Both the position numbers and the translations under genes were made by a program. A stretch of 64,000 bases of DNA from a virus: the IMG/VR virus record IMGVR_UViG_3300004481_000271, positions 44,942-108,941 of that record; one strand, given 5' to 3'. Every line of letters starts with the position of its first letter. The stretch's first letter is position 1. Below are positions 44,402 to 63,931 of this stretch, in pieces. The notes below the pieces were generated by a model. The model saw only the letters and a list, made by a program, of their open reading frames with translations. It did not search any database and was not told the DNA's origin.

Positions 44402-44425
44402 TTCGAGGTAGAAAGATCTCTTCCG

Positions 44426-45085: not shown

Positions 45086-45096
45086 GGTCGAACCCC

Positions 45097-45657: not shown

Positions 45658-45857
45658 CGACGCCAGCCCTTCTCGGTCGCAACGAGCTCGACGGCGGCGT
45701 CGGCGTCCACGGCATCGAAGCCAAGGTCGACGACGAAGAGCTCCCGGTCGAGAACGAGCTCGTCGAGGACGAAGGCCCCCCGAAAGTGCTGGACCATGGT
45801 CCGAAACTGGACCGAGTCCCTCGGGGCGTATCGTGCGACTTCCATCGCGGCACACAT
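45654..45857 (-). CDS. Hypothetical protein
   Basis: Coupled to downstream gene. Confidence 0.5.
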   Translation of the reverse strand: MCAAMEVARYAPRDSVQFRTMVQHFRGAFVLDELVLDRELFVVDLGFDAVDADAAVELVATEKGWRR

Positions 45858-45891
45858 GGAGATCTCCTCGTCGCGATCCTACCACGACAGA

Positions 45892-47359: not shown

Positions 47360-47672
47360 CGTCCTCGAGCTCCATCGCAACGGAGCGGTGGAGGACCTCG
47401 TCGACGGCGAGCCCGAGCTCGCGGACCTCGAGCTCCTCGCCCGGACGGAGGACGGGCGGGCGGGCGGCCTCGACCTCGCGAACGAAGTCGAAGACGGACC
47501 CCCGACCGAAGCCGTCGCCGAAGTCGAGCTCGGCGAGGACAACCCCGGAGCGTCCGCCTCGGAGGACGGCGACGACGACCCGGACCTCCTCGAGCGGGTC
47601 CGCGAGGTCGCGAACGAGCCGCTCGAGACGGCGCCGCTTCCCGGGGTCCAGGTCGACAACCTTCCCGGTCAT
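47349..47672 (-). CDS. Hypothetical protein
   Basis: ATGA coupling. Confidence 0.6.
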   Translation of the reverse strand: MTGKVVDLDPGKRRRLERLVRDLADPLEEVRVVVAVLRGGRSGVVLAELDFGDGFGRGSVFDFVREVEAARPPVLRPGEELEVRELGLAVDEVLHRSVAMELEDDEG

Positions 47673-48316
47673 AGCCCGAGCTCCTCGAAGATCCTCGCCG
47701 AGGTTGCGAGGGCGAGGGCGAGCTCGCGGATCTCCCGCGCCGCCTCGCCGAAGCTACGGGTCGCGATCTCCCGATAGACCCGCTCCCCCAGACGACGGGA
47801 TGCCAGGGCGAGAGACTCCGTCCGCGCGGCGGTCGGAGTCGTAGGCGGAGGGGCGGGAGGAGGAGGAGGAGGAGGAGGAGGAGCGGGCTCCTCGGCGAAG
47901 TCGAGCTCGGCCTGGGGACCGATCGGCAGGGAAGCCGGTCGCTCGATCGCCCCCTCGAGCTTCGTCTTGACCCGAGACCCGTCGCCTCTGTTCTCGCGGC
48001 GACGCGAACGGTCGACGTGGACCCCGAGGTTCGTCGCCGTCCACTTCGCGTGAGCCTTCGGAAGTCCGGAGTCGAGCCGAGCGATCTCCCCCCGCCGAAC
48101 GAGCTCGGCGAGGAGCTTCCGGATCTTCTGGTCGTGGCGCTTCGCGAGCTTCACGTCGGAGACGTAATCTTGCGCCCCCCAGGTCAACGCAAGGCGCCGG
48201 GCGACGTCCTGGGTCGTGGCGAACGCCGTCGGGTTCTCCGGCGTCCGGTCTTCGACCGAGATCTCGACGACGGCCTTCCGGAGGTCGTCGAGCTCGGTCC
48301 ATCCCTTCCGAGTCAT
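47669..48316 (-). CDS. Putative winged-helix protein with poly-Pro linker
   Basis: TTQDVARRL...IRKLLAELVRRGEI; PPPPPPPP tract. Confidence 0.55.
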   Translation of the reverse strand: MTRKGWTELDDLRKAVVEISVEDRTPENPTAFATTQDVARRLALTWGAQDYVSDVKLAKRHDQKIRKLLAELVRRGEIARLDSGLPKAHAKWTATNLGVHVDRSRRRENRGDGSRVKTKLEGAIERPASLPIGPQAELDFAEEPAPPPPPPPPPAPPPTTPTAARTESLALASRRLGERVYREIATRSFGEAAREIRELALALATSARIFEELGL

Positions 48317-48780
48317 GGGTCCTTCCCCTTTCCGTTGTCCTCGACGCGGACGAGCTCCGCCTCGAGCCAGACGGCACCGTCGACCGCCGGACCGGAATCG
48401 GCGGCGTCGAGCTCGAGGAGCGGGAGGGCCTCGCCAGCGAGAGCGAAGACGATCGTCCTCACGCCCCGACAGTCGCGGTCGAAGAGGTCGACGCGGAGCC
48501 AGCGGGAGCCGACGAGCCGCTCGGCGAGCGGCGGACGTCCGCGGACGTGCGCGGTCCGGAGCTCGAGGCGGCGGCCGTCGTAGCGGAGCCGCGCCCCGGC
48601 AACGGACGGCGGACCTCCGAGGCGGGCGATCGAGTCGGCGGCCTCGAGCCCGTCCTCGTCGTCGGCGACGGCAAGGCGGAACCTGTACCCCGGGAGGAAG
48701 TCGGCCTCGAGCCCTTCCATCGCCAGCATTCGGCGGGCGGTCTCGTCGAGGGCGCGGGCGACGTTCTCCTTCTCGGCCAC
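48313..48780 (-). CDS. Hypothetical protein with ARLGG motif
   Basis: GTG 6 nt after CAGTAAC motif. Confidence 0.6.
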   Translation of the reverse strand: MAEKENVARALDETARRMLAMEGLEADFLPGYRFRLAVADDEDGLEAADSIARLGGPPSVAGARLRYDGRRLELRTAHVRGRPPLAERLVGSRWLRVDLFDRDCRGVRTIVFALAGEALPLLELDAADSGPAVDGAVWLEAELVRVEDNGKGKDP

Positions 48781-48852
48781 GGTTTCGTTACTGCTCGCCG
48801 GCGGGGAAGACGTCGCCCTCGAGGAGGAGCCCCGAGGGCGGCGAGGCGGAAG

Positions 48853-49590
48853 CTACTTCACGAGGGCGGCGCGGGCGATCTCGGTCTGCTTCTCGCCCTT
48901 GTAGGTCGAATGCGACTTGACGGTCCCGCGGATCCGAACCTCGTCGCCCTTCCCGATCGGGACCTCACCGTTCCCGGCGGGAGCGGTCTTCCAGAGCCCG
49001 ACACCGGTCGTCTTCCAGACGATCGCGTTCCCGTCGGCGTCGCGGAACTTGTAGAGCGTGACCGTCGTCGTCCCGAAGCCCGAATAGGAGTTGATCGCCC
49101 AGGAAAAGGTCGCCTCGAGGCGGACGTCGAAGACCCTCCGCTCGCCCTCGGTCCCGACGAAGTCGGAGGCGGCGGCGCGGGAAGCACGGTCCTGGCGACG
49201 GATCTCGTCGAGCTCGGCGAAGGTGACCGGCCCGTGCCCCTGGCTCTCGCACCATGCCCGTTGACGCTCGAGGGCGGCCTCGGCCCGCTTCTCGGCGGCG
49301 GCCTGGCGACGGCCGGCGGCGAGCTCGCGACGACGCTCCGCCTTCGCGAAGTCGACGACGGGGACGAGATCGACGAGCCCGGCAGTCTTCGCGCCGTTGC
49401 ACTCGTAGCAGATCCCGCCGTCGGGGAACCAGTGACCGCGCCCCTCGCCCCCGCACCGTGGGCAGGCGAGGGAGACTGCGACGGCCGGACCGTCGACGGT
49501 CTCGCGGATCGAGACCCCGCGGTCGACGAGGTAGGCGATCGCGGCGGCGATCGTGTTCAGGGAGAGCCGCTTCGTCGTCTTCGTTCCCAT
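48853..49590 (-). CDS. Zinc-finger plus OB-fold nucleic-acid-binding protein
   Basis: CPRCGGEG...CYECNG; FVG..GER...DADGN..VWK...GDEVRIRGTVK.H..YKG..QT. Confidence 0.75.
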   Translation of the reverse strand: MGTKTTKRLSLNTIAAAIAYLVDRGVSIRETVDGPAVAVSLACPRCGGEGRGHWFPDGGICYECNGAKTAGLVDLVPVVDFAKAERRRELAAGRRQAAAEKRAEAALERQRAWCESQGHGPVTFAELDEIRRQDRASRAAASDFVGTEGERRVFDVRLEATFSWAINSYSGFGTTTVTLYKFRDADGNAIVWKTTGVGLWKTAPAGNGEVPIGKGDEVRIRGTVKSHSTYKGEKQTEIARAALVK

Positions 49591-49614
49591 CGTGTCCTCC
49601 GTCCTCATGTCTCT

Positions 49615-49674
49615 GTTATACGGTCTCCCTGGGGACCGGTCAAGAGGAAAACGACATCGGGGCGAAAAAAGATC
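49615..49674 (-). promoter_or_regulatory. Repeated sigma70-type promoter, copy 4
   Basis: TTGACC-17-TATAAC; leader identical to copy 1. Confidence 0.85.
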
Positions 49675-49687
49675 GAGAGGGAGATCT

Positions 49688-49981
49688 CTAGGCGGGGACG
49701 GCGGCGAGGAGCTCGTCGGCGAGCTCGTCCCCGACGAAGAAGGCGAGCGTCCCGCGGTTCGCGTCGTTCGCGGGGAAGTGATGGACCCCGGTCACGATCC
49801 CGTTGCGGGTCGTCCGGACGTAGGCGTAGCGGCGGCCGCCGGAGCCGACGACGATCTCCGCCGTCTTCCGGAAGACGGTCTCGAAGGGAGCATAGGCGGG
49901 CGAGACCCGCTCCGTCTCGGTCTGCTCGATCACGATCCCGGTCTCGGTCCTGGTCACGGTCGCCTCGGTCGTCGTCTTCAT
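49688..49981 (-). CDS. Hypothetical early protein
   Basis: MKTTT start after GGAGGAG. Confidence 0.65.
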   Translation of the reverse strand: MKTTTEATVTRTETGIVIEQTETERVSPAYAPFETVFRKTAEIVVGSGGRRYAYVRTTRNGIVTGVHHFPANDANRGTLAFFVGDELADELLAAVPA

Positions 49982-50062
49982 CGTCTCCTCCTCCTCGAGC
50001 CCTTCGGCCCGCGGAGACCCTCGAGGAGCTCGAGGACCTCCGCCGGCCGAAGCCGGCCCGCA

Positions 50063-50461
50063 CTAGGCGGCGACGGCCTTCGACCCGCCAGCAAGCCAAA
50101 CCTGGACGAGCTTCTTCGCGTCCGCGATCGTGCGCGCCGGGGCCATGCCGTCGATCGCTTCCCAGGGCGAGAAGGACTCGGTCTTGACGTCGACGCGGTA
50201 ACCCTTCCCGCGACCGGCCCGGCCGTCGATCCGGAAGGAGATCTTGCCGGCGTGCGAGCGGCCGGAGACGTCGGAGAAGGACGCGAGGACGCGCCCAACG
50301 AGGATCGCGGGCGCGACCCGCTCCCAGGAAACCGCCCGGGAGGAGCGGAAGGAGGAGGAGTTGACGACAGAGGAGAGGGTGTTGAAGACGACGGCGGCGA
50401 TGATGGCGTCCATGATGACCTCCGGGCCGGCGGGGTTGGTTTCGTTTTCCGTCCGGCTCAT
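50063..50461 (-). CDS. Hypothetical early protein (alternative start 50413)
   Basis: ATG 6 nt after -10 of promoter copy 5. Confidence 0.6.
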   Translation of the reverse strand: MSRTENETNPAGPEVIMDAIIAAVVFNTLSSVVNSSSFRSSRAVSWERVAPAILVGRVLASFSDVSGRSHAGKISFRIDGRAGRGKGYRVDVKTESFSPWEAIDGMAPARTIADAKKLVQVWLAGGSKAVAA

Positions 50462-50467
50462 GTCTCT

Positions 50468-50604
50468 GTTATACGACCTCCCCGGAGACCGCGCAAGAGA
50501 AAAACGACACCGCCCGAAAAAAAGATCCCGACCGAGCGATCTCCATCCTCGAGGGCGAGGTCGCGAACGCCGCAATTCCCAGTGTTTTATCGGGTCAAGT
50601 CGAC
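50468..50604 (-). promoter_or_regulatory. Repeated promoter copy 5 plus 34-bp upstream box
   Basis: TTGCGC-17-TATAAC; near-copy of 44276-44401. Confidence 0.8.
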
Positions 50605-52157: not shown

Positions 52158-52188
52158 GACCTCCGCCCCTCGTTACTGCTCGTCCCGA

Positions 52189-52851
52189 TCACCGGCAGAC
52201 CCAGAGGACGGCGGCGGTCGCCCGGCCGTCGCCGAGCTCGAGCTCCTCGCCGAGGTCCTCCTCGACGCGGACGACGTCGCCGAAGAAGTCGCGAAGGACC
52301 GTCTCGAGCTTCCGCTCGCCCTGGCGGCCTCGAGGGAGGAAGCCCCTCGGCTCCTCGGGGAGGTTCGCGACGAGGACCCCGCCCGGCCGGAGAGCTCCGC
52401 GGATCTCGCCGAGGGTCTCGCGGAGACGGGCGAGGCTCGTCTGGACGTTCAGGACGTTCGACGCGAGGACGACGTCGTAAGGGTCCTCGAAGGTGTCGAC
52501 GAGGACCTCGTCCTCGAGGGCGTCGAGGTAGGACTTCGCTCGGGAGCGAACCGCGGGGCTCGGACTCTCGAGGTCGGCCGGCGAGCTCGGGACGTCGTAG
52601 CCGTCGACGCGGTAGCCCAGGCGGAGGAGGGCCCGGACTTGAAGAGCGGCGGCGCCGGCGCCGAAGTCGAGGAGCCGCTCCTTCCCCGGCCGGAGGTGCC
52701 GGACGACGTAGCGGGCAACGACCGGCCCCCTTCCATCGCGGAGAGCCCGGAGGGCAACGTCCGCCCAGGACTCGCCCTCGCGGGGAGCGGGGAGTCCGAT
52801 CCCGAGGCGGAAGGTCCGCGCCATGGCGGCGAGCTCGTCATCGCGGGTCAT
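52189..52851 (-). CDS. Class I SAM-dependent methyltransferase
   Basis: LLDFGAG, VDGYD, YDVVLASNVLNV, LRPGG. Confidence 0.85.
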   Translation of the reverse strand: MTRDDELAAMARTFRLGIGLPAPREGESWADVALRALRDGRGPVVARYVVRHLRPGKERLLDFGAGAAALQVRALLRLGYRVDGYDVPSSPADLESPSPAVRSRAKSYLDALEDEVLVDTFEDPYDVVLASNVLNVQTSLARLRETLGEIRGALRPGGVLVANLPEEPRGFLPRGRQGERKLETVLRDFFGDVVRVEEDLGEELELGDGRATAAVLWVCR

Positions 52852-52861
52852 CGCCTCGAGC

Positions 52862-53146
52862 CTACCCATCCCCGGCCTCGGAGACGATCTCCGCGGCGAG
52901 CTCGTGACCGAGGGTCCAGAGAAGGGACCGCGCCCCGTGGGCCTCGAGCCCCTCGACGACGAGGAAGCGGGCGCCGGCGACCTCGAGGGCGACGTCGACC
53001 CGGTGGACCCCGAGGGCGGTCCGTCCCCGGTCGATCTGGACGACCCGCCGGTCCCCTCCGAGGCGGAGGGCGGCGACGGCGTCCGGCGGAAGGAGGTCCT
53101 CGAGGCGGAGGCGACCGAGGCGGAGCCCGCGGACGAGGTCGGTCAC
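52862..53146 (-). CDS. RLG-motif small protein
   Basis: LLPPDAVAALRLGG. Confidence 0.7.
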   Translation of the reverse strand: MTDLVRGLRLGRLRLEDLLPPDAVAALRLGGDRRVVQIDRGRTALGVHRVDVALEVAGARFLVVEGLEAHGARSLLWTLGHELAAEIVSEAGDG

Positions 53147-53568
53147 CGCTCGAGCTCCGCGTCGACGACGTCGTCGAAGGCAACGAGGACGACGGTCCCC
53201 TCCTCGATCCCGACGACCGGCAGGGAGAGCCGGTCGGCGAGGGCCTCGGAGATGTTCGTGTCGACGTCGCCGGCGTCCGTCGAAGCCTCGCCGAAGACGG
53301 CGACGCGAACGGCCGGCTCGAGCTCGAGCTCGAACTCGAAGGGGCGACCGATCTGGACGAGCTCCCAACGGTAGACCGTTCCGACGCGGAAGACCTCGTC
53401 CTGGGTCACGAGGACGACGAGATCGGGCGGAGGTCCGAGACGGACCGCGGACGCGAGCTCCGGAGGTAGGAGGGCAAGAAGGGCCTCGGCGACGTCGATC
53501 GTCGGTTCCGCGAGGCGGTTCTCGGCGGCGGCGATGATCGGACGGAGGAGCTCGACGAGGTCGGTCAT
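53143..53568 (-). CDS. RLG-motif small protein
   Basis: LLPPELASAVRLGP. Confidence 0.72.
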   Translation of the reverse strand: MTDLVELLRPIIAAAENRLAEPTIDVAEALLALLPPELASAVRLGPPPDLVVLVTQDEVFRVGTVYRWELVQIGRPFEFELELEPAVRVAVFGEASTDAGDVDTNISEALADRLSLPVVGIEEGTVVLVAFDDVVDAELER

Positions 53569-54032
53569 CGCGGCCTCCCGAGGTCGGTCGAGACGGCGAG
53601 GACCTCCTCGACGGGGAAGTCGAAGCGGAGGACCCCGGGAAGCCCGTCGTCAACGACGACGGCGCCGAGCCGAAGGTCGAGGACGAAGCCCGGCCGGCGG
53701 AGCGGACCTCGCCCGGCCGGACCGAAGCCCGGGAGCTCCCGCTCGGCCCGGTCCTCGAAGAAGCGAAGGCGAGCTCGCCGGACGCGGGCGACGACCGAGA
53801 GGGCAGGAAGCGCGGAGTCAACCGTCCGGCCCTTCGGAGTCGCCCGGTGTCGCGCGATGTCAACCCGGAGGACGGCGTCCCGGTCGACGAAGCGGATCGA
53901 CTCCGCCTCCCGGGTGATCCAGCCGAGGCGAGATCTCGCGTCGAGGGCGGCGAGCTCGTCGGCGTCCTCGGCGAGGAGGACGGCGGCGGTGTCGGCCCAC
54001 TCGAAGACGAGGTCGCGGAAGGCGCGGGTCAT
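53565..54032 (-). CDS. RLG-motif small protein (reduced motif)
   Basis: ELAALDARSRLGW. Confidence 0.65.
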   Translation of the reverse strand: MTRAFRDLVFEWADTAAVLLAEDADELAALDARSRLGWITREAESIRFVDRDAVLRVDIARHRATPKGRTVDSALPALSVVARVRRARLRFFEDRAERELPGFGPAGRGPLRRPGFVLDLRLGAVVVDDGLPGVLRFDFPVEEVLAVSTDLGRPR

Positions 54033-54286
54033 CGGCGGACCTCCTTCGCCCAGCGGACGACCGACCGGGGAGGCGTCCCCCCGAGCCCGGGGTCAACCCC
54101 GACCGTCGCGACGGAGTCCCCGTCGACCCAGAGCTCGAAGACCCGAACCCCTGGCTCGAAGGCGGACGGCCAGCCCCCATCGAAGCCGTAGCCGGCCCCA
54201 AGGCGGAGCTTCGCGGCGAGGTCCGGGGAGAGAAGCTCGCGGGCGAGGAGCTCCGCGACGACCCTCTCCGGAGTCGGCCCGATCAT
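54029..54286 (-). CDS. RLG-motif small protein
   Basis: LLSPDLAAKLRLGA. Confidence 0.7.
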   Translation of the reverse strand: MIGPTPERVVAELLARELLSPDLAAKLRLGAGYGFDGGWPSAFEPGVRVFELWVDGDSVATVGVDPGLGGTPPRSVVRWAKEVRR

Positions 54287-54567
54287 CGGCCGACCCTCGC
54301 AGCGTGAAGGACCTCGCGCCGGTCCCGCCATTCGACGACGTCGACGCGGGCGGCGGCAACCCCGATCTCGGCGACGGCCCCCTCGTCGACCCAGAGCTCC
54401 CAGGTCTCCCGGTAGCCCCCGCGAGTCGGCTCCCAGCGTCGCCTCGCGGCGAGCTCGAAGCGGTAGGGCGCCCCGAGCCGGAGGCGGGCTTCGACCTCCG
54501 ACCGGAGGACCCCGCAAGCGAGGAGCTCCTCGAGGAGCTGGGCGGCGCGGGCGACCTCGAGGCTCAT
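54283..54567 (-). CDS. RLG-motif small protein
   Basis: VLRSEVEARLRLGA. Confidence 0.7.
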   Translation of the reverse strand: MSLEVARAAQLLEELLACGVLRSEVEARLRLGAPYRFELAARRRWEPTRGGYRETWELWVDEGAVAEIGVAAARVDVVEWRDRREVLHAARVGR

Positions 54568-55010
54568 GGAGCGCCCCTCCCCTCGCCGAGAACAACGCGA
54601 GCCGAGCGGGTCCGCCATGCCCAGGACACGACCCGCCCCTGAATCTTCGGGGCGGAGAGCTCGAGGCGGAGGACGAAGGTCGGCCGGCGGACGCGGGACT
54701 CGGCGCCGGTCCACCAGATCGAGCCCCCCTCGGCAACGTAGACGAGCTCGGCGAGGGCGCGGCCCTCCTCGAGGAAGGCGGCGAGCGGAGCGATAGGAGC
54801 CCCGGTGCCCCGAAGCGACCCGCGGAAGAGGAAGTCGAGACGACCGTTGCGGAAGCCAAGATCCCAGAGCTCCGTCCTGGGAGCCTCGCCGAGGCGGAAG
54901 CGGGCGTCGGCGGCGTCGAGGTCCTCCTCCTCGAGGGCGAGGAAGAGAAGGACCGCCCTCGAGACCTCGGTCCCCTCGAACGTGATGAAGGTGGCCGTCG
55001 GCCCGGTCAT
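54564..55010 (-). CDS. RLG-motif small protein (reduced motif)
   Basis: DLDAADARFRLGE. Confidence 0.65.
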   Translation of the reverse strand: MTGPTATFITFEGTEVSRAVLLFLALEEEDLDAADARFRLGEAPRTELWDLGFRNGRLDFLFRGSLRGTGAPIAPLAAFLEEGRALAELVYVAEGGSIWWTGAESRVRRPTFVLRLELSAPKIQGRVVSWAWRTRSARVVLGEGRGAP

Positions 55011-55426
55011 CGCCCCCTCCACGGAGGACCCGCCCAGAACTCCCCGAGCCCGAGCCCTCGGGAGGCGAGGGAGAGAAGGGCGAAGCTCCTCGACCCGACC
55101 CCCTCCCCAACGAGGACCCGCTCGCCGGAGCAGAGGACGACGAGGACCTCCCAGACGTGCGGGACGGACGTCCGCTCCCGGCGGAGCTCGACGGCGCCTC
55201 CGAGCCGGACCGTCGAGGCGAGCTCGGGCGGGAGGAGGGAGAGGAACGCCTCGGCGGCCTGGCTCGGGTTCGGCCCGGGAGCCTCGCCGCAGTAGAAACC
55301 GACCTCGGCCTCGACGACGCCGCGGACGGCCCGGCGGAGCTCGAGGTCGAAGGGAAGGAGAAGCCGGCCCCCTCCGGCGGTCGTCGCGTCCTCCCTCGCA
55401 TCGACCCGGCGGTCCTCCTCGGCCAC
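55007..55426 (-). CDS. RLG-motif small protein
   Basis: LLPPELASTVRLGG; GTG after GGGAGG. Confidence 0.7.
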   Translation of the reverse strand: MAEEDRRVDAREDATTAGGGRLLLPFDLELRRAVRGVVEAEVGFYCGEAPGPNPSQAAEAFLSLLPPELASTVRLGGAVELRRERTSVPHVWEVLVVLCSGERVLVGEGVGSRSFALLSLASRGLGLGEFWAGPPWRGR

Positions 55427-55459
55427 GACGGCGACCTCCCTCCCTCCTGTTACTGCCCG

Positions 55460-56240
55460 GTCGGTCCGGCCCAAGGCGGACGTCCGACCCGAGCCCGCGG
55501 GAGCCGGACTCCGCCCGTCGGGGCCCTCGAGGTGGACCCCCAAACGCCCCCGCCCCTCCCGTCCCCAAACGCCCCTTCCGACGGAGCCCAAAACGCAAAG
55601 GTCCCGCCGTTGACCCCTCCCCGAGCCGGACGTCCGACGCGGGAGCTCCTCCCCCGACCCCGGGAGGAACCTCGCCCTCCGCCCCTCCCCGAGACGACCC
55701 GCCGAAGGCGCCTCGGCCCTGCCGCCCCGCGCGCCCCGGCCCTCGCCAAACCCCCTCGAGGACTCCCAGCGCGGAGCTCCTCAACCTTGCCGGGCCGGAC
55801 GTCCGACTCGGCGCGGGCCCCTGCGACAACCTGGACCTCGAGGCGACGCGGGAGGACCCCCTTCCCCGGTGTCGCCCCGCGGCGCGGGAGGACCCCCCAC
55901 AAGCCCCCGGGAGGTGTCGCCCCGCGAAGGCGCGAGTTGCAGACCGATGGAGGGGGAGGCGGGCCCGGCCCGGGCGCCCCGGCGCCCGGAGCGGCGGCCC
56001 CCGGGGGGCCAGCGGCGGCGGCGACCCCGGGCCCCGGAGCGGGCGCCCGGCTCGGGTCGGCCCCTCGCCGAGGGCGGCAACGAGAGCCTCGAGGCCCTCG
56101 AGGGCGCGGGCGGGGAGCTCCTCGAGGACGTCGACGGGGAGCTCCTCGAGGTCGCCCTCGGCGGCGCCGGTGAACGCCCCCGGCGTAACGACCCGTCCGT
56201 CCCGTAACGCTTGCGGTGTCTCGGTCGGTGTCTCGCAACG
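55460..56240. repeat. Non-coding gap with clustered short direct repeats (candidate pac/terminus/origin)
   Basis: GGACGTCCGAC x3, CCCCAAACGCCCC x2, CGCGGGAGGACCCC x2, GGTGTCGCCCCGCG x2, GGGGAGCTCCTCGAGG x2. Confidence 0.6.
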
Positions 56241-56242
56241 TA

Positions 56243-57061
56243 TCAGTGGAGCTTCGCGGGGTCGGCGGGGACCTCGACGAGGTCGACGGCGTCGGGGACG
56301 AGCCCCCGCTTCCGGGCGCGGGCGAGGGCCCTCGAGGCGAGCTCGATCGTCCGGGCGGCGTCCTCGAGCCCCATGTTCCGGACGTCGACGCCGACGATCT
56401 CGGTCGGCTCGCCGAGGATGATCCGCTCCATCTCGAGGTTGATCTTCGCGGCCTCGGCGGCGTTCCGGGTGAGGTAGGCGAGGGTCGAGACGAACCGCGT
56501 GACCTGGGCGGGCTCGAGCTTCACCGCGCCGGTCCGGAGCTTCGTCTCGAGCTCGCGGGACTTCTCGATCCCGGCGGAGAGGAGCCTCGCGGTCGCGGAC
56601 ATCAGGGCGACGGTGTTCGCCCGGGAGAGCTTCACCATGGACGCCTCTGCCTCGCGGGCGGCGACGGCGTCGTCCTTCGCCAACATCCGGGCGGCCTCGA
56701 CCCCGGTCGTCCGGAGCCCGGCGAGCGGCGGCCCGGCGAGGTCCTCGCCGGCGTCCGCGCCTCCGGAGTCGGACGTCCCCGGCGGGAGCCCGGCCTCGGC
56801 CGAGCCGGCGAGGTAGACGGCGGCCTGGCGACGGGAGCGGGCGAGGAGACGCTCCTCGTCGAGAACGTCCCTGATTGCGGGCAGTTGGCGGGACGGCCAG
56901 CCCTCGTGCCAGGCCCGGCGGGCGGTCCCGCGCGCCACCCCGGCGGCGCGCCCAGCACGGCTCACATTGCCTGGATGTTCGCGGAACTGCGCGAGGAGGG
57001 CTTCGTAAGTGCTCCGTCCGACGAGCGAATCGGACCCCTTGCCGTTGCGGTACTTTCCCAT
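56243..57061 (-). CDS. HTH protein, probable terminase small subunit
   Basis: N-terminal HTH (NVSRAGRAAGVARGTARRAW..GW), helical core, LERxxxGEPTE-like end (MERIILGEPTE). Confidence 0.6.
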   Translation of the reverse strand: MGKYRNGKGSDSLVGRSTYEALLAQFREHPGNVSRAGRAAGVARGTARRAWHEGWPSRQLPAIRDVLDEERLLARSRRQAAVYLAGSAEAGLPPGTSDSGGADAGEDLAGPPLAGLRTTGVEAARMLAKDDAVAAREAEASMVKLSRANTVALMSATARLLSAGIEKSRELETKLRTGAVKLEPAQVTRFVSTLAYLTRNAAEAAKINLEMERIILGEPTEIVGVDVRNMGLEDAARTIELASRALARARKRGLVPDAVDLVEVPADPAKLH

Positions 57062-57358
57062 GGTGACCTCTTCGGCGAAGTGTAGCGTTATCGGACAGGC
57101 TAACGCAAGCCCGGCTCCGGCATCCGTGGGTCATCCTGGGGCGGGACCGGGCCTTCTAGGCGGCGGGCACGGTGGGCCCGGGGTTCCGGAGGGGGTTGGG
57201 CCTCCGGGCCTTAGAGGGCCCTTCTAGGGGCAGGGCGAGGGGGGTTGGTCTGGGAGAGGGTTGGGAGATAGGGGAGGAGCTTGGGGGAGAGGGAGGGGCG
57301 GGAGGGGCGGCGCGGCGGTGTTTTCTTCCCCCGGGAGGGACGGCGCGGCGCGGGCGGG

Positions 57359-57784
57359 TCATGGGCTGGGTTCGCCGGAGGGGGACGGTGGGAGAAGCCA
57401 GCGGGGAGGGGCGAGGGTCCATGGGGCGGGGAGCTCGGCGAGGGGGAGGCGGAGGGTCGAGGCGAGGAGGAAGAGGCGGGGACGCTGGACGACTCGGCGG
57501 GTCTCGGCGTAGGCGAGGGGGAGGACGAGCTCGAGGAGGACGTCCGACTCGGCGGCGGCGAGGAAGGTCAAGGCGGAGCCCGGACCGTAGGTGAAGCGGT
57601 GGAGCTCGAGGGTCTCGGAGGTAGGCTGGAAGGAAGTCGGGCGGGCACGGAGGACGAGAACGAAACCGGCGAGCTCGCCCCCGAGACGGACGAGGGTCTC
57701 GAGGTCGGGAGGGAGGAGGGCGAGGAGACTGTCGGCGAGGATGTCCGGAGGCGAGTCGAGCTCGAAGGGGCGGCCGGCGGTCAT
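57359..57784 (-). CDS. RLG-motif small protein
   Basis: LLPPDLETLVRLGG. Confidence 0.72.
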   Translation of the reverse strand: MTAGRPFELDSPPDILADSLLALLPPDLETLVRLGGELAGFVLVLRARPTSFQPTSETLELHRFTYGPGSALTFLAAAESDVLLELVLPLAYAETRRVVQRPRLFLLASTLRLPLAELPAPWTLAPPRWLLPPSPSGEPSP

Positions 57785-58185
57785 CGCTTCCCCGGCGACG
57801 GAGGCGGCGGGAGTATCCAGAGGGGGCCAGCGGAGTAGACCTCGGCGGCGGGGAGGTCGAGAGCCAGGGCGAGGGCGACGGTCTCGGCGCGGGCGACGGC
57901 GTCGTCGACGGTGTCGAGGCGGCGGCGGCGGAGGACGGCGAGGACGTCCGCCCCGAGGAGCGGGACGTCTTCGTCCCCGGCGGCCGGAAGGGTAGGTCGG
58001 ACGAGCTCGAGGGCGATGTCGGAGCCCCGGCGTGGGGACTCCCAGCGGGCGGGCGAGGTCCAGAGGACGAGGAAGAGGCAGTCGACTCCCCTTCCCCCGC
58101 CGAGACGGAGGCGGGCGGCGAGAGCCGCGTCTCGGCGGGCGACGACCTCGAGGAACCGGTCGAGAGGTGAGTCGCCGGCGGTCAT
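57781..58185 (-). CDS. RLG-motif small protein (reduced motif)
   Basis: DAALAARLRLGG. Confidence 0.68.
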   Translation of the reverse strand: MTAGDSPLDRFLEVVARRDAALAARLRLGGGRGVDCLFLVLWTSPARWESPRRGSDIALELVRPTLPAAGDEDVPLLGADVLAVLRRRRLDTVDDAVARAETVALALALDLPAAEVYSAGPLWILPPPPSPGKR

Positions 58186-58601
58186 CGCCTCCCCCGAGTC
58201 GCTCCGTCGGCGGGGTCGAGAAGCGGGAGGCGGAGGGCGAGAGCCGCTTCGGAGACGCTCGAGAGGGCGGCGACGCGGACGGCGAGGGCGAGGACGGCGT
58301 CCTTCGGCTCGAGGTGACTCAGGGCGGCCCCGAGTAGCCCGTCCGGGATGTAGCCGTCGACGTCGGCGGCGAGGACGGCGAGCTCGAGGACGTCTTCGAC
58401 GAGGACGTCCGCCTCGAGGGAGCGGGGTCGCCTCGCCCCCTCGGGACCGAAGACGGGAGGGAAGCGGACGAGAGCGACGGTCGGCGTCCCCCTCGGCCGA
58501 CGCTCGACTCGGAGGGCGAGACCGCTCCGACGGGCGCCCCCGAGACGGAGCTCGGCCTCGAGATCGGCCGGAAGGAGGGCGAGAAGCTCGTCGGCGGTCA
58601 T
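58182..58601 (-). CDS. RLG-motif small protein
   Basis: LLPADLEAELRLGG. Confidence 0.72.
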   Translation of the reverse strand: MTADELLALLPADLEAELRLGGARRSGLALRVERRPRGTPTVALVRFPPVFGPEGARRPRSLEADVLVEDVLELAVLAADVDGYIPDGLLGAALSHLEPKDAVLALAVRVAALSSVSEAALALRLPLLDPADGATRGRR

Positions 58602-59068
58602 CGCCTCCCCCGCGTCGGCGTCGCGACGCATCGGGCGTTAGGGTGCGAGGGAGGGAAGACGAGATCCCGCCTCGGCGCCCCGGGCGGGACGATCCAACCG
58701 GGCGCCTCGAGGGTCGCGTCGAAGTCGGGGAACTCGGCGAGCGGAAGGGCGAGCGCCTCCGCCAGACGGCGGAGGGGAGGGAGGGGGACGGTCCTCGACC
58801 TCCTCCGGCGGACCGGGACTTCGGCGATGACCTCGAGACCGCCCTCGAGGAGCTCGTCGAGCTGGGGCGGGGAGGCGCGAAGGCGAAGAACCTCGAGACG
58901 AGCGTCCGGCCCGTTGGTCCGGAGGACGAGCACGAGACCGCTCGCCTCGCCGGCGAGCCGAATCTCCGCCCGAACCTCGGGAGGGAGAAACGCGAGGAGC
59001 TCCTCCGAGGGGGTTCCCCGGGAGGGTTCCCATATGGAAAGCGCGCGAGGGTCTTCCTCGTCGGTCAC
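58598..59068 (-). CDS. RLG-motif small protein
   Basis: FLPPEVRAEIRLAG; GTG 6 nt after CAGTAAC. Confidence 0.7.
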   Translation of the reverse strand: MTDEEDPRALSIWEPSRGTPSEELLAFLPPEVRAEIRLAGEASGLVLVLRTNGPDARLEVLRLRASPPQLDELLEGGLEVIAEVPVRRRRSRTVPLPPLRRLAEALALPLAEFPDFDATLEAPGWIVPPGAPRRDLVFPPSHPNARCVATPTRGRR

Positions 59069-59075
59069 GCCACCG

Positions 59076-59375
59076 TTACTGCTCGAGGAGGTCCTCGGCG
59101 GGGACTGAGTAGAAGGCGGCAAGCTCGAGGCGGACGGCGTCGTCCCGGAGGTCGGCCCCCTCGAGGACGGCGGACATCCTGGCGAGGAGAAGCCGGAGCC
59201 GCTCGTCCGGCCAGCGGGCGAGGATCTCGAGCCGCTTCGCCTCGAGCTCGGACGCGAGTCCATCGAGCTTGGCGACGAGGGCCTCGGCGCGGTCGTGCTT
59301 GTCCGGCGGGACGGAGCCTCGCCGAAGTGCAAGGCGAGCGGCCTCGACAAGGGCGGAGTGTCGTCGGCTCGGCAT
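59076..59375 (-). CDS. Hypothetical helical protein
   Basis: Purine-rich SD; coding-like codons. Confidence 0.65.
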   Translation of the reverse strand: MPSRRHSALVEAARLALRRGSVPPDKHDRAEALVAKLDGLASELEAKRLEILARWPDERLRLLLARMSAVLEGADLRDDAVRLELAAFYSVPAEDLLEQ

Positions 59376-59485
59376 CGATCCTTCCCCTTTCTTCCCAGAG
59401 ACGTCGGAGAGAGGTTCGATCGGACGCCTATCGACAGGGAAGGAGATCCCTCCCCGAGGGCGAACGTCCGGCGAAGGACCGCCGG

Positions 59486-59710
59486 TCAGCCCTTCCCGTT
59501 GTTAACGAGGGCGGTCACGACCTCGGCGAGCTCGTCAACGTCCCGGCGGAGGGCGACAACCTGGGGAGGGATCTCGTCCAGTCGCCCGAGGGAAGTCGCG
59601 ACGGACATCACGGCTTCCCCCTGAGAGACGAGAAGCCGACGATGTTCCCGGAGCTCGGCGAGGATGTCTCCGAGAATGTCGAGCGTTGTCCGCGTCTTAT
59701 CGTCTGGCAT
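59486..59710 (-). CDS. Small coiled-coil protein
   Basis: Heptad pattern. Confidence 0.55.
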   Translation of the reverse strand: MPDDKTRTTLDILGDILAELREHRRLLVSQGEAVMSVATSLGRLDEIPPQVVALRRDVDELAEVVTALVNNGKG

Positions 59711-59801
59711 CCCGCCACGACCTCGCACCCCATCCGAAGTCTAGCAGACCTCTCCGACTTCCGTCTCCGGCGCAAAGCCAGAGCTCGAGCCGGCGGGAGG
59801 T

Positions 59802-59999
59802 TCATCGCCGGCTTCGCTCGCCAAAGGGATCCCGAACTTCGGCAACGACCTCGGCGACGACCTCCTCGGAGAGGGCGCGGTATCGCTCGGGGTCGGCGGC
59901 GAAGGCAGCGCGGACGAGCTCCTCGTCGCCCGGGAGCATCCGGCCGAGCTTCCCCCGCCGGCGGGCCCCGCGAACCTTCCCCCAGTCGATCTCGGTCAT
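59802..59999 (-). CDS. Hypothetical protein
   Basis: ATGA coupling, GGAGG. Confidence 0.55.
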   Translation of the reverse strand: MTEIDWGKVRGARRRGKLGRMLPGDEELVRAAFAADPERYRALSEEVVAEVVAEVRDPFGERSRR

Positions 60000-60349
60000 C
60001 CGGACCTCCGGTCGACCCAGTCCGGCGCCCTCGGCCATGGGCGAGCCTCGACATCCCAGCCCAGGACGCGGGCGGCGGCCTCGATCGTCCGGACGGTGAG
60101 CCCGTAGACGCACGTCCCGAGCGGGACGAAGCGGTCGCCGAAGGGCGGCGCCCAGAGCCGGACGGCGGTCTCGAAGGACTTCGAGGACGGCCAGCGGTCG
60201 AAGGCGAGCCGCCAGAAGCCCGGGAAGGCGCCGAGACGGGCGAGGGCCTCGACCTCGCCGGAGTCGGTGACCTCGGAGACGACGGCGAGGAGCTCCTCGG
60301 CGGCGGCGTCCGCCTCCCGGCCGGCGAAGCGGACGTCGAGCTTCAACAT
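59996..60349 (-). CDS. RLG-motif small protein (reduced motif)
   Basis: EELL...EVEALARLGA...AARVLGW. Confidence 0.65.
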   Translation of the reverse strand: MLKLDVRFAGREADAAAEELLAVVSEVTDSGEVEALARLGAFPGFWRLAFDRWPSSKSFETAVRLWAPPFGDRFVPLGTCVYGLTVRTIEAAARVLGWDVEARPWPRAPDWVDRRSG

Positions 60350-60660
60350 AGCGTCCGCACCCGTAGGAGCTCGGAGAGCCGGCGGCCGAGGCGGGCGTCG
60401 AGAACGGCGACGCGGTCGCCGAGCTTCCACGGCTCGGCGCCGGAGACGTCGACCGTCCGGGCCTCGAGGAGGAGCTTCGACGGCTCGCCATCGAGGTGCA
60501 GGGCGAGGCGGACGACCCGAGGACGGCGAGGGTTGAAGTCGGCCCGGAGCCGGAGCGGCGGGAGGTCGAGAAGCCGAAGGGCTCCCTCGTCCTCCGACGG
60601 GAGGAGGGAGAGGAGCCCGTCGACCGTCGGCGGGACCGTTGCGAGCGTCCGGGTCACCAT
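60343..60660 (-). CDS. RLG-motif small protein (variant)
   Basis: LLPSEDEGALRLLD. Confidence 0.65.
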   Translation of the reverse strand: MVTRTLATVPPTVDGLLSLLPSEDEGALRLLDLPPLRLRADFNPRRPRVVRLALHLDGEPSKLLLEARTVDVSGAEPWKLGDRVAVLDARLGRRLSELLRVRTLC

Positions 60661-61007
60661 GGTCCGATCCCGTGCGCGAAGGTCTGCCCCTCCTCGCGGG
60701 TTGTCGAAAGGAGCGGGAGCTCGAGGGCGTCGGAGGCGATCAAGGCGTCGTCCCCGGTCGCCCCCTCGATCCGGACGAGCTGGACGATCGCGGCGACGAC
60801 GGCGTCCGGGATCTCGTTCGGCCGTTCGCCGAGGACGTCCTCGCGGAGCTCGGCGGGGAGCCGGACGACCTCGAGCCAGTGCGCGCCGGCGTCGCCCCTC
60901 TGGACCCGGAGGGCGAGCCCGTTCGCCCGGCCTCCGAGGCGGACCTCGGCCTCGAGCTCGGGCGGGAGAGCGAAGCGGGCGAGGATCTCCTCGACGACGT
61001 CGGTCAT
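60654..61007 (-). CDS. RLG-motif small protein
   Basis: ALPPELEAEVRLGG. Confidence 0.72.
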   Translation of the reverse strand: MTDVVEEILARFALPPELEAEVRLGGRANGLALRVQRGDAGAHWLEVVRLPAELREDVLGERPNEIPDAVVAAIVQLVRIEGATGDDALIASDALELPLLSTTREEGQTFAHGIGPW

Positions 61008-61360
61008 CGCGTCCCCCAGCCCGCGAGGGCGAGGTCCTCGGCGGTCGGCCTCCGCCACGCCTCGAAGGGCGGGACCTCTCCCTCGACACGGTCGAAGTCG
61101 AGGACCTCGAAGGGGTTGCTCGGGTCAACCCACCATTGCAGCCGGCGCCCCTCCTCGGAGTCGTCCGCCCATCGGTCCGGCGGCCCGACCTTGATCTCCG
61201 TCGCGCATGAGCTCCCAACGATGACGACCCCGACCCGACGAGCTCGCCCGGGCCAGCGACGCTCGAAGATCCGGAGCTTCGTCCCCCGCGGCGGGACGAA
61301 GAAGTCGCCGAGGCGGCGGGCGGCGGTCGCCTGGGCGGCGGTCTTCTCCTCGCGGGTCAA
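61004..61360 (-). CDS. RLG-motif small protein (SH3-like subfamily)
   Basis: AARRLGDFFVPPRGTKLRI. Confidence 0.62.
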   Translation of the reverse strand: MTREEKTAAQATAARRLGDFFVPPRGTKLRIFERRWPGRARRVGVVIVGSSCATEIKVGPPDRWADDSEEGRRLQWWVDPSNPFEVLDFDRVEGEVPPFEAWRRPTAEDLALAGWGTR

Positions 61361-61722
61361 GACTTCCTCCGCCGGAGACGGGCGACGCGGAGGGCCCCCT
61401 CGGCAAGCCTCGGCCAGTTGTCGAAGGGAAGCGCCGAGGCGGGGACCTCGAGGACCTCGAGGTCGCCCGGCACGGCGACGAGTCGGACGGGAGGATGTTC
61501 GACCCCGACCTTCCGGGCGTTCGCGGAGAGGACGGCGCCGACCCCTTCCTCGAGGTCGAGCTCGACCTCGAGGCGGTCGCGGCCGAAGTCAACAACGACC
61601 CCGAGAACGAACTCGCCATCCGGACCCGTTGCAGCGATGAAGCGGACGCGCGTCCCCGGCGGAGGGAGGGCGGGGTCGCCGAGGCGGAGGGCGGCGTTGA
61701 TCCGCCGGAGCTCGTCGGTCAC
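61357..61722 (-). CDS. RLG-motif small protein (SH3-like subfamily)
   Basis: NAALRLGDPALPPPGTRVRF. Confidence 0.65.
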   Translation of the reverse strand: MTDELRRINAALRLGDPALPPPGTRVRFIAATGPDGEFVLGVVVDFGRDRLEVELDLEEGVGAVLSANARKVGVEHPPVRLVAVPGDLEVLEVPASALPFDNWPRLAEGALRVARLRRRKS

Positions 61723-62171
61723 CGGAGCCTCCGAGGGCGCCAGGACGGCGGGAGCGGCGGGTCCTGGGGAAGCCGGACCTCCGCCGGCCGGAGCTCCCAG
61801 AGCTTCGGGCGTTCCGAGCTGTCGCCCGGCGGGTCTTCGGTGAGCCATTGGGTCCGCGGCCGGAGTCCGACGGCTCGAAGGGCGTCGACGACGGCGCGGC
61901 GGAGCTCGAGGGCGTCGTTCCACTCATAGCCGAGGGCCTCGACCTTCTCGCCGGCGGGGACCTGGACGAGAGGGAAGGACCCGAGTCCGGGGAGCTTGAT
62001 CCAGAGCCGGAGCTCGCAGCGGGCGCCCCCGCCCTCGAGGAGCCAGGTCGCGAAGACCTCCCCCTCCTCGACCCCGAGGCAGAGGACGGCGGCGACGTCC
62101 GGACGGAGGACCTCGAGGACGAGGTCGAGGATGTGGCGGTCGCCGGCGGTCGGCGGACGGGTCTCGATCAT
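61719..62171 (-). CDS. RLG-motif small protein (variant)
   Basis: VLRPDVAAVLCLGV; ATG 7 nt after CAGTAAC. Confidence 0.65.
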   Translation of the reverse strand: MIETRPPTAGDRHILDLVLEVLRPDVAAVLCLGVEEGEVFATWLLEGGGARCELRLWIKLPGLGSFPLVQVPAGEKVEALGYEWNDALELRRAVVDALRAVGLRPRTQWLTEDPPGDSSERPKLWELRPAEVRLPQDPPLPPSWRPRRLR

Positions 62172-62179
62172 CCCCTCCG

Positions 62180-62767
62180 TTACTGCTCGCGGGAGTCGAG
62201 GATGTCCTCGAGGATCCGCTCGGGCGGGAGGACCTCCCGGACGATGTCGGCGACGGCGCGGGAGGCGGCCCGTCCGTCGTTCAGGATACGACAGCACGCC
62301 TCGATGGAGTAGGAAGCCCGACTCGTCGCCTCGAGGCGGTTCCCCACCTTCACCGCGCCGGCGAGGAGGATCGCCTGGGTCACCGCTTCCCGAAGTCGGG
62401 AGTGACGTCCGAGGACGCGGGCATCGGTCCGAAGGATCGGCTCGGCGGCGAGGATCGCCTCGCCGGTCTCGCCCTGGGCGAGGCGGTCGACGAACCGCTC
62501 GACGGTCGTGTAGGTTCCCGGCGGGAGGGCGAGGACCTCGAGGCAGCGACCGAGAACGGCGCCGACGGCCCGGAGGAGGGCGGTCTCCCGGCCGGCGGCG
62601 GAGGCGAGCTCGACGAGGAGGGCGGCATCGCCGGACTTCTCGAGGGATCGGCGGAGCCCCCCGGGCGACCGGAGGAGGACCCCTTCCTCGCCGGCGGCGG
62701 TGAGCTCGAGCCCGCGGAGACGGACGAGGGTCTTCAAGGCGACGAGGTTCTCGAGCTCGAGGGTCAT
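62180..62767 (-). CDS. Hypothetical helical protein
   Basis: ATGA coupling; coding-like codons. Confidence 0.65.
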   Translation of the reverse strand: MTLELENLVALKTLVRLRGLELTAAGEEGVLLRSPGGLRRSLEKSGDAALLVELASAAGRETALLRAVGAVLGRCLEVLALPPGTYTTVERFVDRLAQGETGEAILAAEPILRTDARVLGRHSRLREAVTQAILLAGAVKVGNRLEATSRASYSIEACCRILNDGRAASRAVADIVREVLPPERILEDILDSREQ

Positions 62768-63219
62768 CGGCGCCTCCGTCGGCCCCGGTAGGAGGGCGTC
62801 CGTCGAAGCGGCCGGAGCTCGAAGGGCCCCGAGGGAGGCGAGTCCGGAAGCTCGCCCCTCGCCGGCGAAGGGGGACGGAGGAAGCGAGGCTCGCGGCGAA
62901 TGCGCCAGCCGAGGGACTCGGCGGCGTCGGCAAGGAGCGGCGTCCGGTCCCGGGAGACTCGCCCAAGGAGGAGCTTCCCGAGCCCGGCCCGAACCTCGAC
63001 GAGGACCCCAGGCGCCCCGTAAGACCCCGACTCGAGCTCCCCGAGGACGAGCTCGAGCTCGCCCCCGAGGCGGGCGGCGGCCTCGGCCGATTCGGGAAGG
63101 AGCTCGAGGAGCCAGTCGGCAACGTCGGCGACCGCTTCCTCGGCGCGGGCGACTCGGTCACCGTGGACGACGGCGGTCCGGCGGGCGGCGGTGTCGACGG
63201 CGACGTCGAGGTCGATCAT
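62764..63219 (-). CDS. RLG-motif small protein
   Basis: LLPESAEAAARLGG. Confidence 0.72.
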   Translation of the reverse strand: MIDLDVAVDTAARRTAVVHGDRVARAEEAVADVADWLLELLPESAEAAARLGGELELVLGELESGSYGAPGVLVEVRAGLGKLLLGRVSRDRTPLLADAAESLGWRIRREPRFLRPPSPARGELPDSPPSGPFELRPLRRTPSYRGRRRRR

Positions 63220-63578
63220 ATGATCCCCTCGTCGCCCAGCCCATCGAGCCGGCGGGTCGATCGGTGTTCCCGTTTCCAGCCCCGGACCTTCGCGAACTCG
63301 AAGAGCTCCCTCGGGATCTTCCCCCGCTTCCATACCCCGACCCGGCGCCATTCCGCGGAGGCGCCCTCGACGAGAACCCAGATCTCGAGAGCGTTCGGAC
63401 GGGAGGCGAAGATCCGGACGACCATCCGGATCGACGCCCCGGCCCCGAGGCGGAGGGCGGCGGCCTCGGAGGGCGGGAGGGAGGCGAGGACGCGGTCGAG
63501 CGGCGGGACCTTGCTCGGGGTCGGGAGCTTCCCGACCCCGCGGCGTCGAGGGCCTCCCGGCGTTCGCCAGTAGGTCAC
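63216..63578 (-). CDS. RLG-motif small protein
   Basis: SLPPSEAAALRLGA. Confidence 0.7.
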   Translation of the reverse strand: MTYWRTPGGPRRRGVGKLPTPSKVPPLDRVLASLPPSEAAALRLGAGASIRMVVRIFASRPNALEIWVLVEGASAEWRRVGVWKRGKIPRELFEFAKVRGWKREHRSTRRLDGLGDEGII

Positions 63579-63931
63579 GACTCGGCCCTCCGCGGAGGGA
63601 AGACGACCCGCCCCTCCGGGAGGCTCGAGCTCGTCGCGGGGTTGTTCCATTGGGCGAGGGCGACGGCGGTGTCGAGGTGTAGCCCGACGACGGCGAGATC
63701 GTAGACCTTCCACCCGAGGGCCTCGCCACCGTCGACGAAGGGTCCGAGGTCGTAGGCGTCCGCCTTCACGATCCCGACGTCGTAACGGTCGAGCTCGCCG
63801 GCGACCTTCGCCTTGACGATCCGGTAGACCCCGGAGCCAAGGAGGACGACCTCGAGGGAGCCCCCGAGGCGGGCGACGGCGTCGAGGCGAGGCGGGAGCC
63901 GACGGAGGACCTCGTGAACGTCCGGCCGCAT
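63575..63931 (-). CDS. RLG-motif small protein
   Basis: RLPPRLDAVARLGG. Confidence 0.72.
   Translation of the reverse strand: MRPDVHEVLRRLPPRLDAVARLGGSLEVVLLGSGVYRIVKAKVAGELDRYDVGIVKADAYDLGPFVDGGEALGWKVYDLAVVGLHLDTAVALAQWNNPATSSSLPEGRVVFPPRRAES

Follow-up and report, generated by a model that had tools for sequence, protein, structure and literature searches.

Duplicated gene arrays in terminal or variable genome arms are known from African swine fever virus (MGF360/505) and from poxviruses (ankyrin/PRANC and Bcl-2-like families), where the copies have diverged and play roles in host range or immune evasion. PRANC proteins follow a design in which a constant F-box-like module is combined with a variable binder. 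Expanded tandem families of small uncharacterised proteins are already known in phages as well. Bacillus phage G carries about 35 zinc-ribbon copies, which were called 'unprecedented' in a review of jumbo phages (Iyer et al. 2021, PMC7824862). Homogeneous polyimmunity loci of the SUKH (SMI1/KNR4) type are tandem arrays of immunity proteins (Zhang et al. 2012, PMC3482391). Here, we analysed an array of small proteins in a 64,000-nucleotide stretch (the window) of the virus record IMGVR_UViG_3300004481_000271 (G000), which a first-pass annotation had described as about 20 divergent proteins sharing the motif LP-x7-RLG. We consider it about as probable as not (roughly 0.5) that the array arose by lineage-specific expansion of a new small domain, whose motif would mainly be the nucleus of the predicted fold and the copies would form a repertoire of binders or inhibitors.

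All nine open reading frames (ORFs) claimed to have the exact spacing LP-x7-RLG carry the motif, compared with 0.05 occurrences expected from the composition of the array proteins and a maximum of one in 2000 shuffles. Six-frame translation of the whole 109-kb genome gave only one extra LP-x7-RLG, lying in an unlikely frame. The N-proximal position of the motif was confirmed, with RLG within the first 60 residues in 18 of 25 array-region proteins (shuffle mean 2.1, maximum 8). At the five invariant codons of the nine copies, identity is 100% in positions 1 and 2 but 52% in position 3. The motif is therefore under selection at the protein level, as had been proposed.

From 55 motif-anchored copies of three phages, a signature was computed with positions counted from the Arg. 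Its upstream part consists of L at -12, L at -9, P at -8, P at -7, E/D at -6, and a hydrophobic residue at -5, and its downstream part of A/S at -3 (90%), a hydrophobic residue at -1, R (98%), L (100%), G (78%), and G/A (71%). Seven of nine conserved positions are hydrophobic, small, Pro, or Gly and hence of core, small, or turn type. A-x-x-L-G-[W/L] forms another conserved block that is widespread among members, as is a C-terminal Trp. The Arg is found anywhere from residue 13 to residue 130, the motif starts 5–120 residues from the N-terminus, and 55–118 residues with conserved blocks of their own follow RLGG. Net charges span -19 to +13 (isoelectric points 4.1–11.7), so the copies are not uniform DNA mimics. 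An A-x-h-RLG junction (h, hydrophobic) from helix to strand is also present in the terminase and in a Rossmann methyltransferase of the same phage and may be a favoured connector in this proteome.

Membership was assessed with leave-one-out profiles built from 63 copies of the three phages; genes are named below by their first window coordinate. The estimate of about 20 members held for 16 proteins of one family and for two (61004 and 61357) of a sister subtype, but not for 53565 and 54564. Eight members (59996, 57781, 60343, 61719, 54029, 54283, 52862, and 63216) were recovered at 13.9–35.7 bits. The profiles failed for 53565 (-4.6 bits) and 54564 (0.0 bits), both of which share only helix-RLG, and were marginal for 61004 (5.1 bits) and 61357 (3.4 bits). 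The latter two are assigned by sequence to the sister subtype, with helix-RLGD, P-P-x-G, and a beta-rich part, and 61357 has full-length orthologues in the L091 lineage described below. In pairwise BLAST, 57359 and 58598 are 36% identical over 119 residues and 57359 and 57781 are 32% identical over 144 residues. Together with many further links, these sequence comparisons indicate that paralogy among members is real and goes beyond the shared motif. After removal of the sequence up to RLG, similarity above shuffled controls survived only within 57359/57781/58598, 58182/60654, and 62764/63575; the pair 54029/54283 then fell just below the control level. The closest paralogues are frequently adjacent, e.g. 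54029/54283 and 57359/57781, which points to tandem duplication. The features of the array are as follows (window coordinates; aa, amino acids).

52862–53146, minus strand: family member, 94 aa, LPPDAVAALRLGG; leave-one-out 22.3 bits
53143–53568, minus strand: family member, 141 aa, very acidic (net -19), LPPELASAVRLG; metagenomic orthologue P0005
53565–54032, minus strand: doubtful member, 155 aa, helix-RLG only
54029–54286, minus strand: family member, 85 aa, LSPDLAAKLRLG; closest paralogue is the adjacent 54283; leave-one-out 22.4 bits
54283–54567, minus strand: family member, 94 aa, LRSEVEARLRLG; leave-one-out 16.4 bits
54564–55010, minus strand: doubtful member, 148 aa, helix-RLG only
55007–55426, minus strand: family member, 139 aa, LPPELASTVRLGG; orthologue P0010
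55427–56242, minus strand: non-coding stretch, 816 bp, 78% G+C, with three CGGACGTCCG palindromes; divides the array
56243–57061, minus strand: helix-turn-helix (HTH)-like protein, 272 aa, inside the array; no Pfam or PHROG match
57359–57784, minus strand: family member, 141 aa, AlphaFold model m2ba0803d6920; exact motif and BLAST
57781–58185, minus strand: family member, 134 aa, without LP; 46% identical over 127 aa to L091 15840–16232; 23.7 bits
58182–58601, minus strand: family member, 139 aa; 44% identical over 138 aa to L091 11509–11976
58598–59068, minus strand: family member, 156 aa, LPPEVRAEIRLAG; start preceded by GCAGTAAC
59076–59375, minus strand: unrelated gene within the array, 99 aa
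59486–59728, minus strand: unrelated gene within the array, 80 aa
59996–60349, minus strand: family member, 117 aa, helix-RLG without LP; orthologue P0017; 20.3 bits
60343–60660, minus strand: family member, 105 aa, LPSEDEGALRLL; leave-one-out 14.8 bits
60654–61007, minus strand: family member, 117 aa, LPPELEAEVRLGG; exact motif and BLAST
61004–61360, minus strand: sister subtype, 118 aa, N-terminal helix-RLGD, P-P-x-G, and beta-rich part
61357–61722, minus strand: sister subtype, 121 aa; 35–36% identical over the full length to L091 4975–5298 and 7317–7628
61719–62171, minus strand: family member, 150 aa, LRPDVAAVLCLG; 38.5% identical over 122 aa to L091 293–781
62180–62767, minus strand: unrelated gene within the array, 195 aa
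62764–63219, minus strand: family member, 151 aa; exact motif; orthologue P0007
63216–63578, minus strand: family member, 120 aa, basic (net +13); leave-one-out 35.7 bits
63575–64000, minus strand: family member truncated by the contig end; modelled from ATG 63931 (md96c2b8268fb)
52189–52869, minus strand: S-adenosylmethionine-dependent methyltransferase directly downstream of the array

Two AlphaFold models were obtained from paralogue alignments, one for 57359 and one for 63575, with a predicted local distance difference test (pLDDT) of 74.9 and 74.6, respectively. Common to both is the order helix 1, LP, helix 2, RLGG turn, three- to four-stranded beta meander, helix, and last strand, with the A-x-x-L-G-W/L block falling in the later helix. 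After LP, both have a single 8-residue helix, followed by the RLGG turn and strand 1, and the motif region is the part of highest confidence (pLDDT 88–93). The motif is thus predicted by the models to form a helical hairpin with a glycine turn into strand 1 of one folded domain. A packed hairpin ending in such a turn is also suggested by the seven of nine conserved positions that are of core, small, or turn type. The A-x-h-RLG junctions of the terminase and the methyltransferase likewise favour a structural role of the motif.

The family matches no known family or fold, in line with its not having been recognised from the sequence at the outset. Scans of all members against Pfam (E up to 1), PHROGs, and PADLOC gave no match, and the family profile retrieved only SCO1997 from the PDB sequences, at an E-value of 0.34, which is noise. 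Queries of the ESM Atlas with two members yielded no usable lead, and Foldseek found nothing in PDB and BFVD at E up to 0.001. In a wide VIA-align search, the best Z scores were 4.4 for the first model and 4.8 for the second (PDB 4m8a, root-mean-square deviation 2.5 A over 61 residues). The same entry was also among the matches listed for the first model (Z 3.5); for these models, a Z of 4.8 lies in the range of chance arrangements. Longer, fused forms of the family were sought and none was found, which is weak evidence.

A profile search of 1.84 billion representative proteins matched 22 clusters, all of which are the phage's own proteins or metagenomic relatives, and no named bacterial protein was among them. 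Two relatives have arrays of their own. G001 is a related complete phage of 108,577 bp with a portal 65% identical to that of G000, and it has about 11 copies, of which six show the exact motif and the remainder of each is barely recognisable. The L091 lineage, a 127.6-kb metagenome contig, has at least 30 copies within the 20 kb read. It also holds orthologues of single paralogues, namely of 58182 (44% over 138 aa), 57781 (46% over 127 aa), 61719 (38.5% over 122 aa), and 61357 (35% over 112 aa). Because these orthologues cross phages at full length, part of the diversity predates the split of the phages, and distinct copies have been maintained. Orthologues of 63575 (P0009 and L091 6205–6687) bear an N-terminal CPECG zinc ribbon, which is absent from the truncated 63575. 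No family copies were found in more distant relatives (portal 45% identical), nor in five genome bins of Myxococcota that carry related capsid genes, for which 150 of 178–395 candidates per genome were scored. Viral-contig scans with single members as query, the first metagenome scan with the HTH-like protein, and the first genome-contig scan with a capsid alignment gave no match. A preprint on myxobacterial viruses makes no mention of such families.

Between G000 and G001, 80 reciprocal best hits (median 56% identity) lie at genome positions 12–85 kb. None falls into the window at 40–64 kb, and the synteny, which runs from the replication genes to the terminase, ends there. By this comparison, the array appears to lie in a hypervariable accessory arm. 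It is located in the arm between the terminase gene and the replication genes, and about 10 kb of the genome are given to 16–18 diverged tandem copies of one small protein. The record is a single contig of 108,941 bp with about 70% G+C and nearly all genes on the minus strand, and the window is its final part. It encodes a tailed phage with a portal, a large terminase, a minor tail/tape-measure protein, and a GPD-type baseplate hub, as well as a capsid-associated polyvalent protein of 1,740 aa with ligase and S78 protease domains. Genome bins of Archangium, Myxococcus, Polyangiaceae, and other Myxococcota hold sequences 46–50% identical to its capsid protein, so the host is probably a myxobacterium. 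One of these capsid relatives sits within a 419-kb contig.

It had been suggested that the array may continue past the window edge. The last gene, 63575, is indeed cut there, but this edge is the contig end, and the family profile found no further member in the whole genome, including the other contig end. At that other end, a minus-strand ORF at genome positions 2–1264 likewise runs off. Since both ends cut an ORF, the assembly was probably broken within the variable arm despite a CheckV completeness of 100%. Elsewhere in the window, an ORF at 41724–42437 encodes a serine recombinase (Resolvase domain, E 5e-36) that covers only positions 1–49 of the 102-position Pfam Recombinase domain; from its sequence, it would be a short recombinase or else a large serine integrase with a truncation or a frameshift.

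The genes are chained as initially described: 15 junctions are ATGA, GTGA, or TTGA start-stop overlaps, each with a GGAGG-like Shine-Dalgarno sequence upstream. The shared 'MT' start simply follows from the ATGAcc overlap, and the Shine-Dalgarno sequence of the next gene accounts for the Arg/Gly-rich C-terminal ends. The HTH-like gene (56243–57061) lies inside the array in all three phages and is 48% identical in G001, where the orthologue is outside the filtered set of reciprocal best hits. Its product has an N-terminal HTH-like segment and a helical C-terminal half and, judged by sequence, may regulate the array, initiate replication, or act as small terminase. A non-coding stretch of about 700–800 bp with phage-specific repeats adjoins this gene downstream. 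At the position equivalent to 55427–56242, G001 has four tandem iterons of about 20 bp and L091 has other repeats, and the stretch looks like an origin or operator region.

The 8-mer GCAGTAAC occurs six times on the minus strand, compared with 0.14 expected, at window positions 52172–52179, 55449–55456, 59075–59082, 62179–62186, 48787–48794, and 24899–24906. Four of the six copies head sub-operons within or beside the array. The array copies lie 6–30 nucleotides upstream of a Shine-Dalgarno sequence and start codon, and three include the TAA stop of the preceding gene. In the case of 55007, the GTG start at 55426 is preceded by the Shine-Dalgarno sequence AGGAGGGAGGGAGG and by GCAGTAAC. Candidate roles for this 8-mer are promoter, processing site, and coupling element marking sub-operons. 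The array contains no Rfam family and no sigma-70-like promoter, and its terminator-like sites are at background level. A promoter-like unit of about 102 nucleotides is present in five copies at 42666, 43369, 44251, 49590, and 50443 (window 42666–50544), which are 61–92% identical to the reference copy; a search of the array found no copy of it.

The end of the motif recurs in a second small family of seven proteins in G000 and G001, whose only invariant feature is A-x-W-R-L-G(G). Its members are located as follows.

40089–40460, window, minus strand: WRLGG family member of G000, in tandem with the next two
40439–40945, window, minus strand: WRLGG family member of G000
41217–41612, window, minus strand: WRLGG family member of G000
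5257–6060, genome of G000: further WRLGG family member
80917–81393, G001: WRLGG family member
89476–89784, G001: WRLGG family member
89781–90224, G001: WRLGG family member

In five of these seven proteins, 0–4 residues separate the element from the stop; in the remaining two, the distance is 5 and 11 residues. Profile comparison of this family with the array family gave a match limited to 10–13 motif columns (E 0.006). A circular permutation linking the two families was considered but gained no support, as the permuted profile matched only the motif. One member has a sub-threshold Baseplate_J match (E 0.0045).

From these data, the following course of events is proposed. One new small domain of about 85–155 aa would have been expanded by tandem duplication to 16 clear copies and two of the sister subtype, with some paralogue lineages kept since before the phages diverged. 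LP-x7-RLGG would mainly serve as fold nucleus, a helical hairpin packed on the sheet with a glycine turn, and the remaining surface would have diverged freely, so that the variable surfaces would be the working part. The genes, translationally coupled in a few operons around the HTH-like gene and the repeat-rich non-coding stretch, would each provide a protein that binds or inhibits a different target, belonging either to the host or to competing elements. Roles in host takeover, counter-defence, or immunity-like protection are suggested by the location, the operon coupling, the retained paralogue lineages, and the analogy with expanded viral families. Several points weigh against this proposal. 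The Arg is 94–98% invariant with less than 25% identity elsewhere, which is more than a turn motif usually needs, and the C-terminal RLGG of the second family has no strand after it and is unexplained by a pure fold nucleus. The high pLDDT of the motif may reflect only conservation, and no target, defence system, or toxin was linked to any copy.

The invariant Arg might instead be read by a common partner. The first-pass annotation had proposed an adaptor library with a constant docking motif and a variable target-binding domain. Its conserved N-proximal element, fast-diverging rest, and coupled arrays were found, and a library for many targets is plausible; a free docking peptide before a separate domain was not, because both models place the motif within one folded domain (pLDDT about 90). 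In the corresponding alternative, helix-RLGG docks all copies and the WRLGG family onto one hub of the phage or the host, and the variable part selects targets. We regard this as rather unlikely, although it would account for R at 94–98% and L at 100% in 55–64 copies of three phages whose remaining sequence is beyond BLAST detection, for the return of the element, as an invariant A-x-W-R-L-G, at the extreme C-terminal end of the seven WRLGG proteins of two phages, with no support for permutation, and for the single HTH-like gene embedded in all three arrays. It is weakened by the prediction that the element is an integral and mostly hydrophobic part of the fold instead of an exposed peptide, by the same junction sequence in unrelated enzymes of the phage, and by the fact that no hub candidate was identified. 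The proposed resemblance to F-box proteins did not hold either. In hmmscan of 20 ORFs against the Pfam F-box models (PF00646 and PF12937, E up to 1), there was no match, and the three-helix F-box module of about 45 aa after LP is replaced by one 8-residue helix in both models. To our knowledge, bacteria lack SCF (Skp1-cullin-F-box) ligases, and F-box/Skp1-like logic is absent from them. Somewhat less likely again is that helix-(A/S)-x-h-R-L-G-G is a portable signal on about 60 array proteins and the second family, which one phage or host factor would read as a docking site or as a ubiquitin-like processing or conjugation site. A processing or targeting tag, with RLGG as cleavage site, capsid-loading signal, double-glycine leader, or ubiquitin-like end of proteins that are matured, packaged, or conjugated, is improbable. 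Such a tag would fit the variable length of the segment before the motif, the start of the folded part just after GG, the C-terminal RLGG of five of the seven WRLGG proteins, which is like that of ubiquitin-like precursors, and the S78 protease domain of the polyvalent protein. However, the phage encodes no C39 (PF03412, which matches 7 control genomes), C48/Ulp1, or JAB peptidase (PF02902 and PF14464), and in the models both helices pack within the domain. Double-glycine leaders end in GG and have hydrophobic residues at -4, -7, and -12, whereas here the conserved hydrophobic residues are at -3, -5, -9, -13, and -16 from the second Gly, and the short hypervariable core peptide is replaced by the 55–118 predicted-folded residues after GG with their conserved blocks. 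For the array family, ubiquitin-like modifiers, with C-terminal LRLRGG, were rejected since its motif is N-proximal and the predicted fold is not a beta-grasp. Internal proteins of phage T4 have their targeting sequence at the extreme N-terminus, where the prohead protease removes it. By comparison, the array motif lies 5–120 residues in, is modelled within the fold, and belongs to genes far from the head genes, beside methyltransferase and regulator-like genes. The capsid-loading or cleavage tag put forward as an alternative in the first-pass annotation was thus not supported by the peptidase searches and the position of the motif.

Myxococcota are rich in exchanged polymorphic toxins, and the array might be a polyimmunity locus whose copies protect the infected myxobacterial cell from the toxins of its neighbours, like tandem SUKH arrays. 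We give this little credence. Homogeneous tandem arrays of small alpha+beta immunity proteins have been described (PMC3482391), the host is probably one of the Myxococcota, and SUKH proteins start with helix, LP, helix, GG, and strand, which is exactly the stretch that hhalign aligns. That alignment, of 38 family sequences against 12 myxobacterial SMI1_KNR4 domains, has a probability of only 0.08% (E 0.62) over 15 columns. Among the Pfam models, none for immunity or SUKH proteins matched at E up to 1, and PF09346 found nothing in six frames of the genome but matched control genomes. No SUKH chain was among the 50 matches listed per model, the best Z scores of 4.4 and 4.8 belonging to other folds, with models of pLDDT only about 75. 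The family was found neither among the candidates scored in the five myxobacterial genome bins nor among named bacterial proteins in the profile search; no toxin gene was noticed next to the array, and the scan of array-region genes detected no toxin domain. That ORFs and motif are by-products of the 73% G+C composition or of a repeated DNA element is very nearly negligible. High G+C does yield many long spurious ORFs here, and some starts are uncertain; yet G+C at third codon positions tracks the called frames, the genes are chained through overlapping starts and stops that have Shine-Dalgarno sequences, codons of the motif vary at position 3 but are conserved at positions 1 and 2, orthologues occur in metagenomes and two other phages, and the motif occurs 9 times instead of 0.05.

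Paralogue expansions of such size are rare in phages. Phages of 109–128 kb give about one tenth of the genome or more to one domain, in which a signature is kept and the rest turned over. If the copies are inhibitors, they would offer probes for myxobacterial defence, kin discrimination, or core machinery and a defined, testable set of genes for the poorly explored biology of myxophages. If RLGG is a shared signal, it would represent a new kind of tag-based phage system in myxobacteria.

Compared with the known systems, the array resembles the SUKH loci in having tandem alpha+beta proteins of about 130 aa with a helix-LP-helix-GG-strand start and many variants of one binder scaffold. It differs from them in being phage-borne, with no toxin domain among the neighbouring genes scanned, no copy found in the bacterial genomes searched, and no Pfam match. 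The multigene families of African swine fever virus and poxviruses differ in that the present array concerns a bacterial host and a single small domain without F-box. The periplasmic domain of FtsH (PDB 4m8a) is a similar small sandwich of helix, beta meander, helix, and strand; there is no sequence similarity to it, the proteins described here are cytoplasmic, and helix 1 of the model is outside the aligned range. With 16–18, about 11, and at least 30 copies in the three phages, the array has the form of a phage lineage-specific expansion, for which at least 10 diverged tandem paralogues in one clade are taken. As in other expansions of large phages, it lies in an accessory region near the genome or contig end. 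New here are the lack of a detectable relative among known families, the occurrence in non-jumbo high-G+C phages, and at least 30 copies in one of them. Like the family of Bacillus phage G, it comprises tens of tandem, diverged copies of a small uncharacterised protein, restricted to one clade and with few invariant residues. There is no relation in sequence or fold, as the repeated unit is a zinc ribbon there and an N-proximal helix-LP-helix-RLGG here. The present phages, of 109–128 kb, are not jumbo phages, have about 70% G+C, and probably infect Myxococcota, and, unlike in Bacillus phage G, some of their paralogue lineages are conserved across phages.

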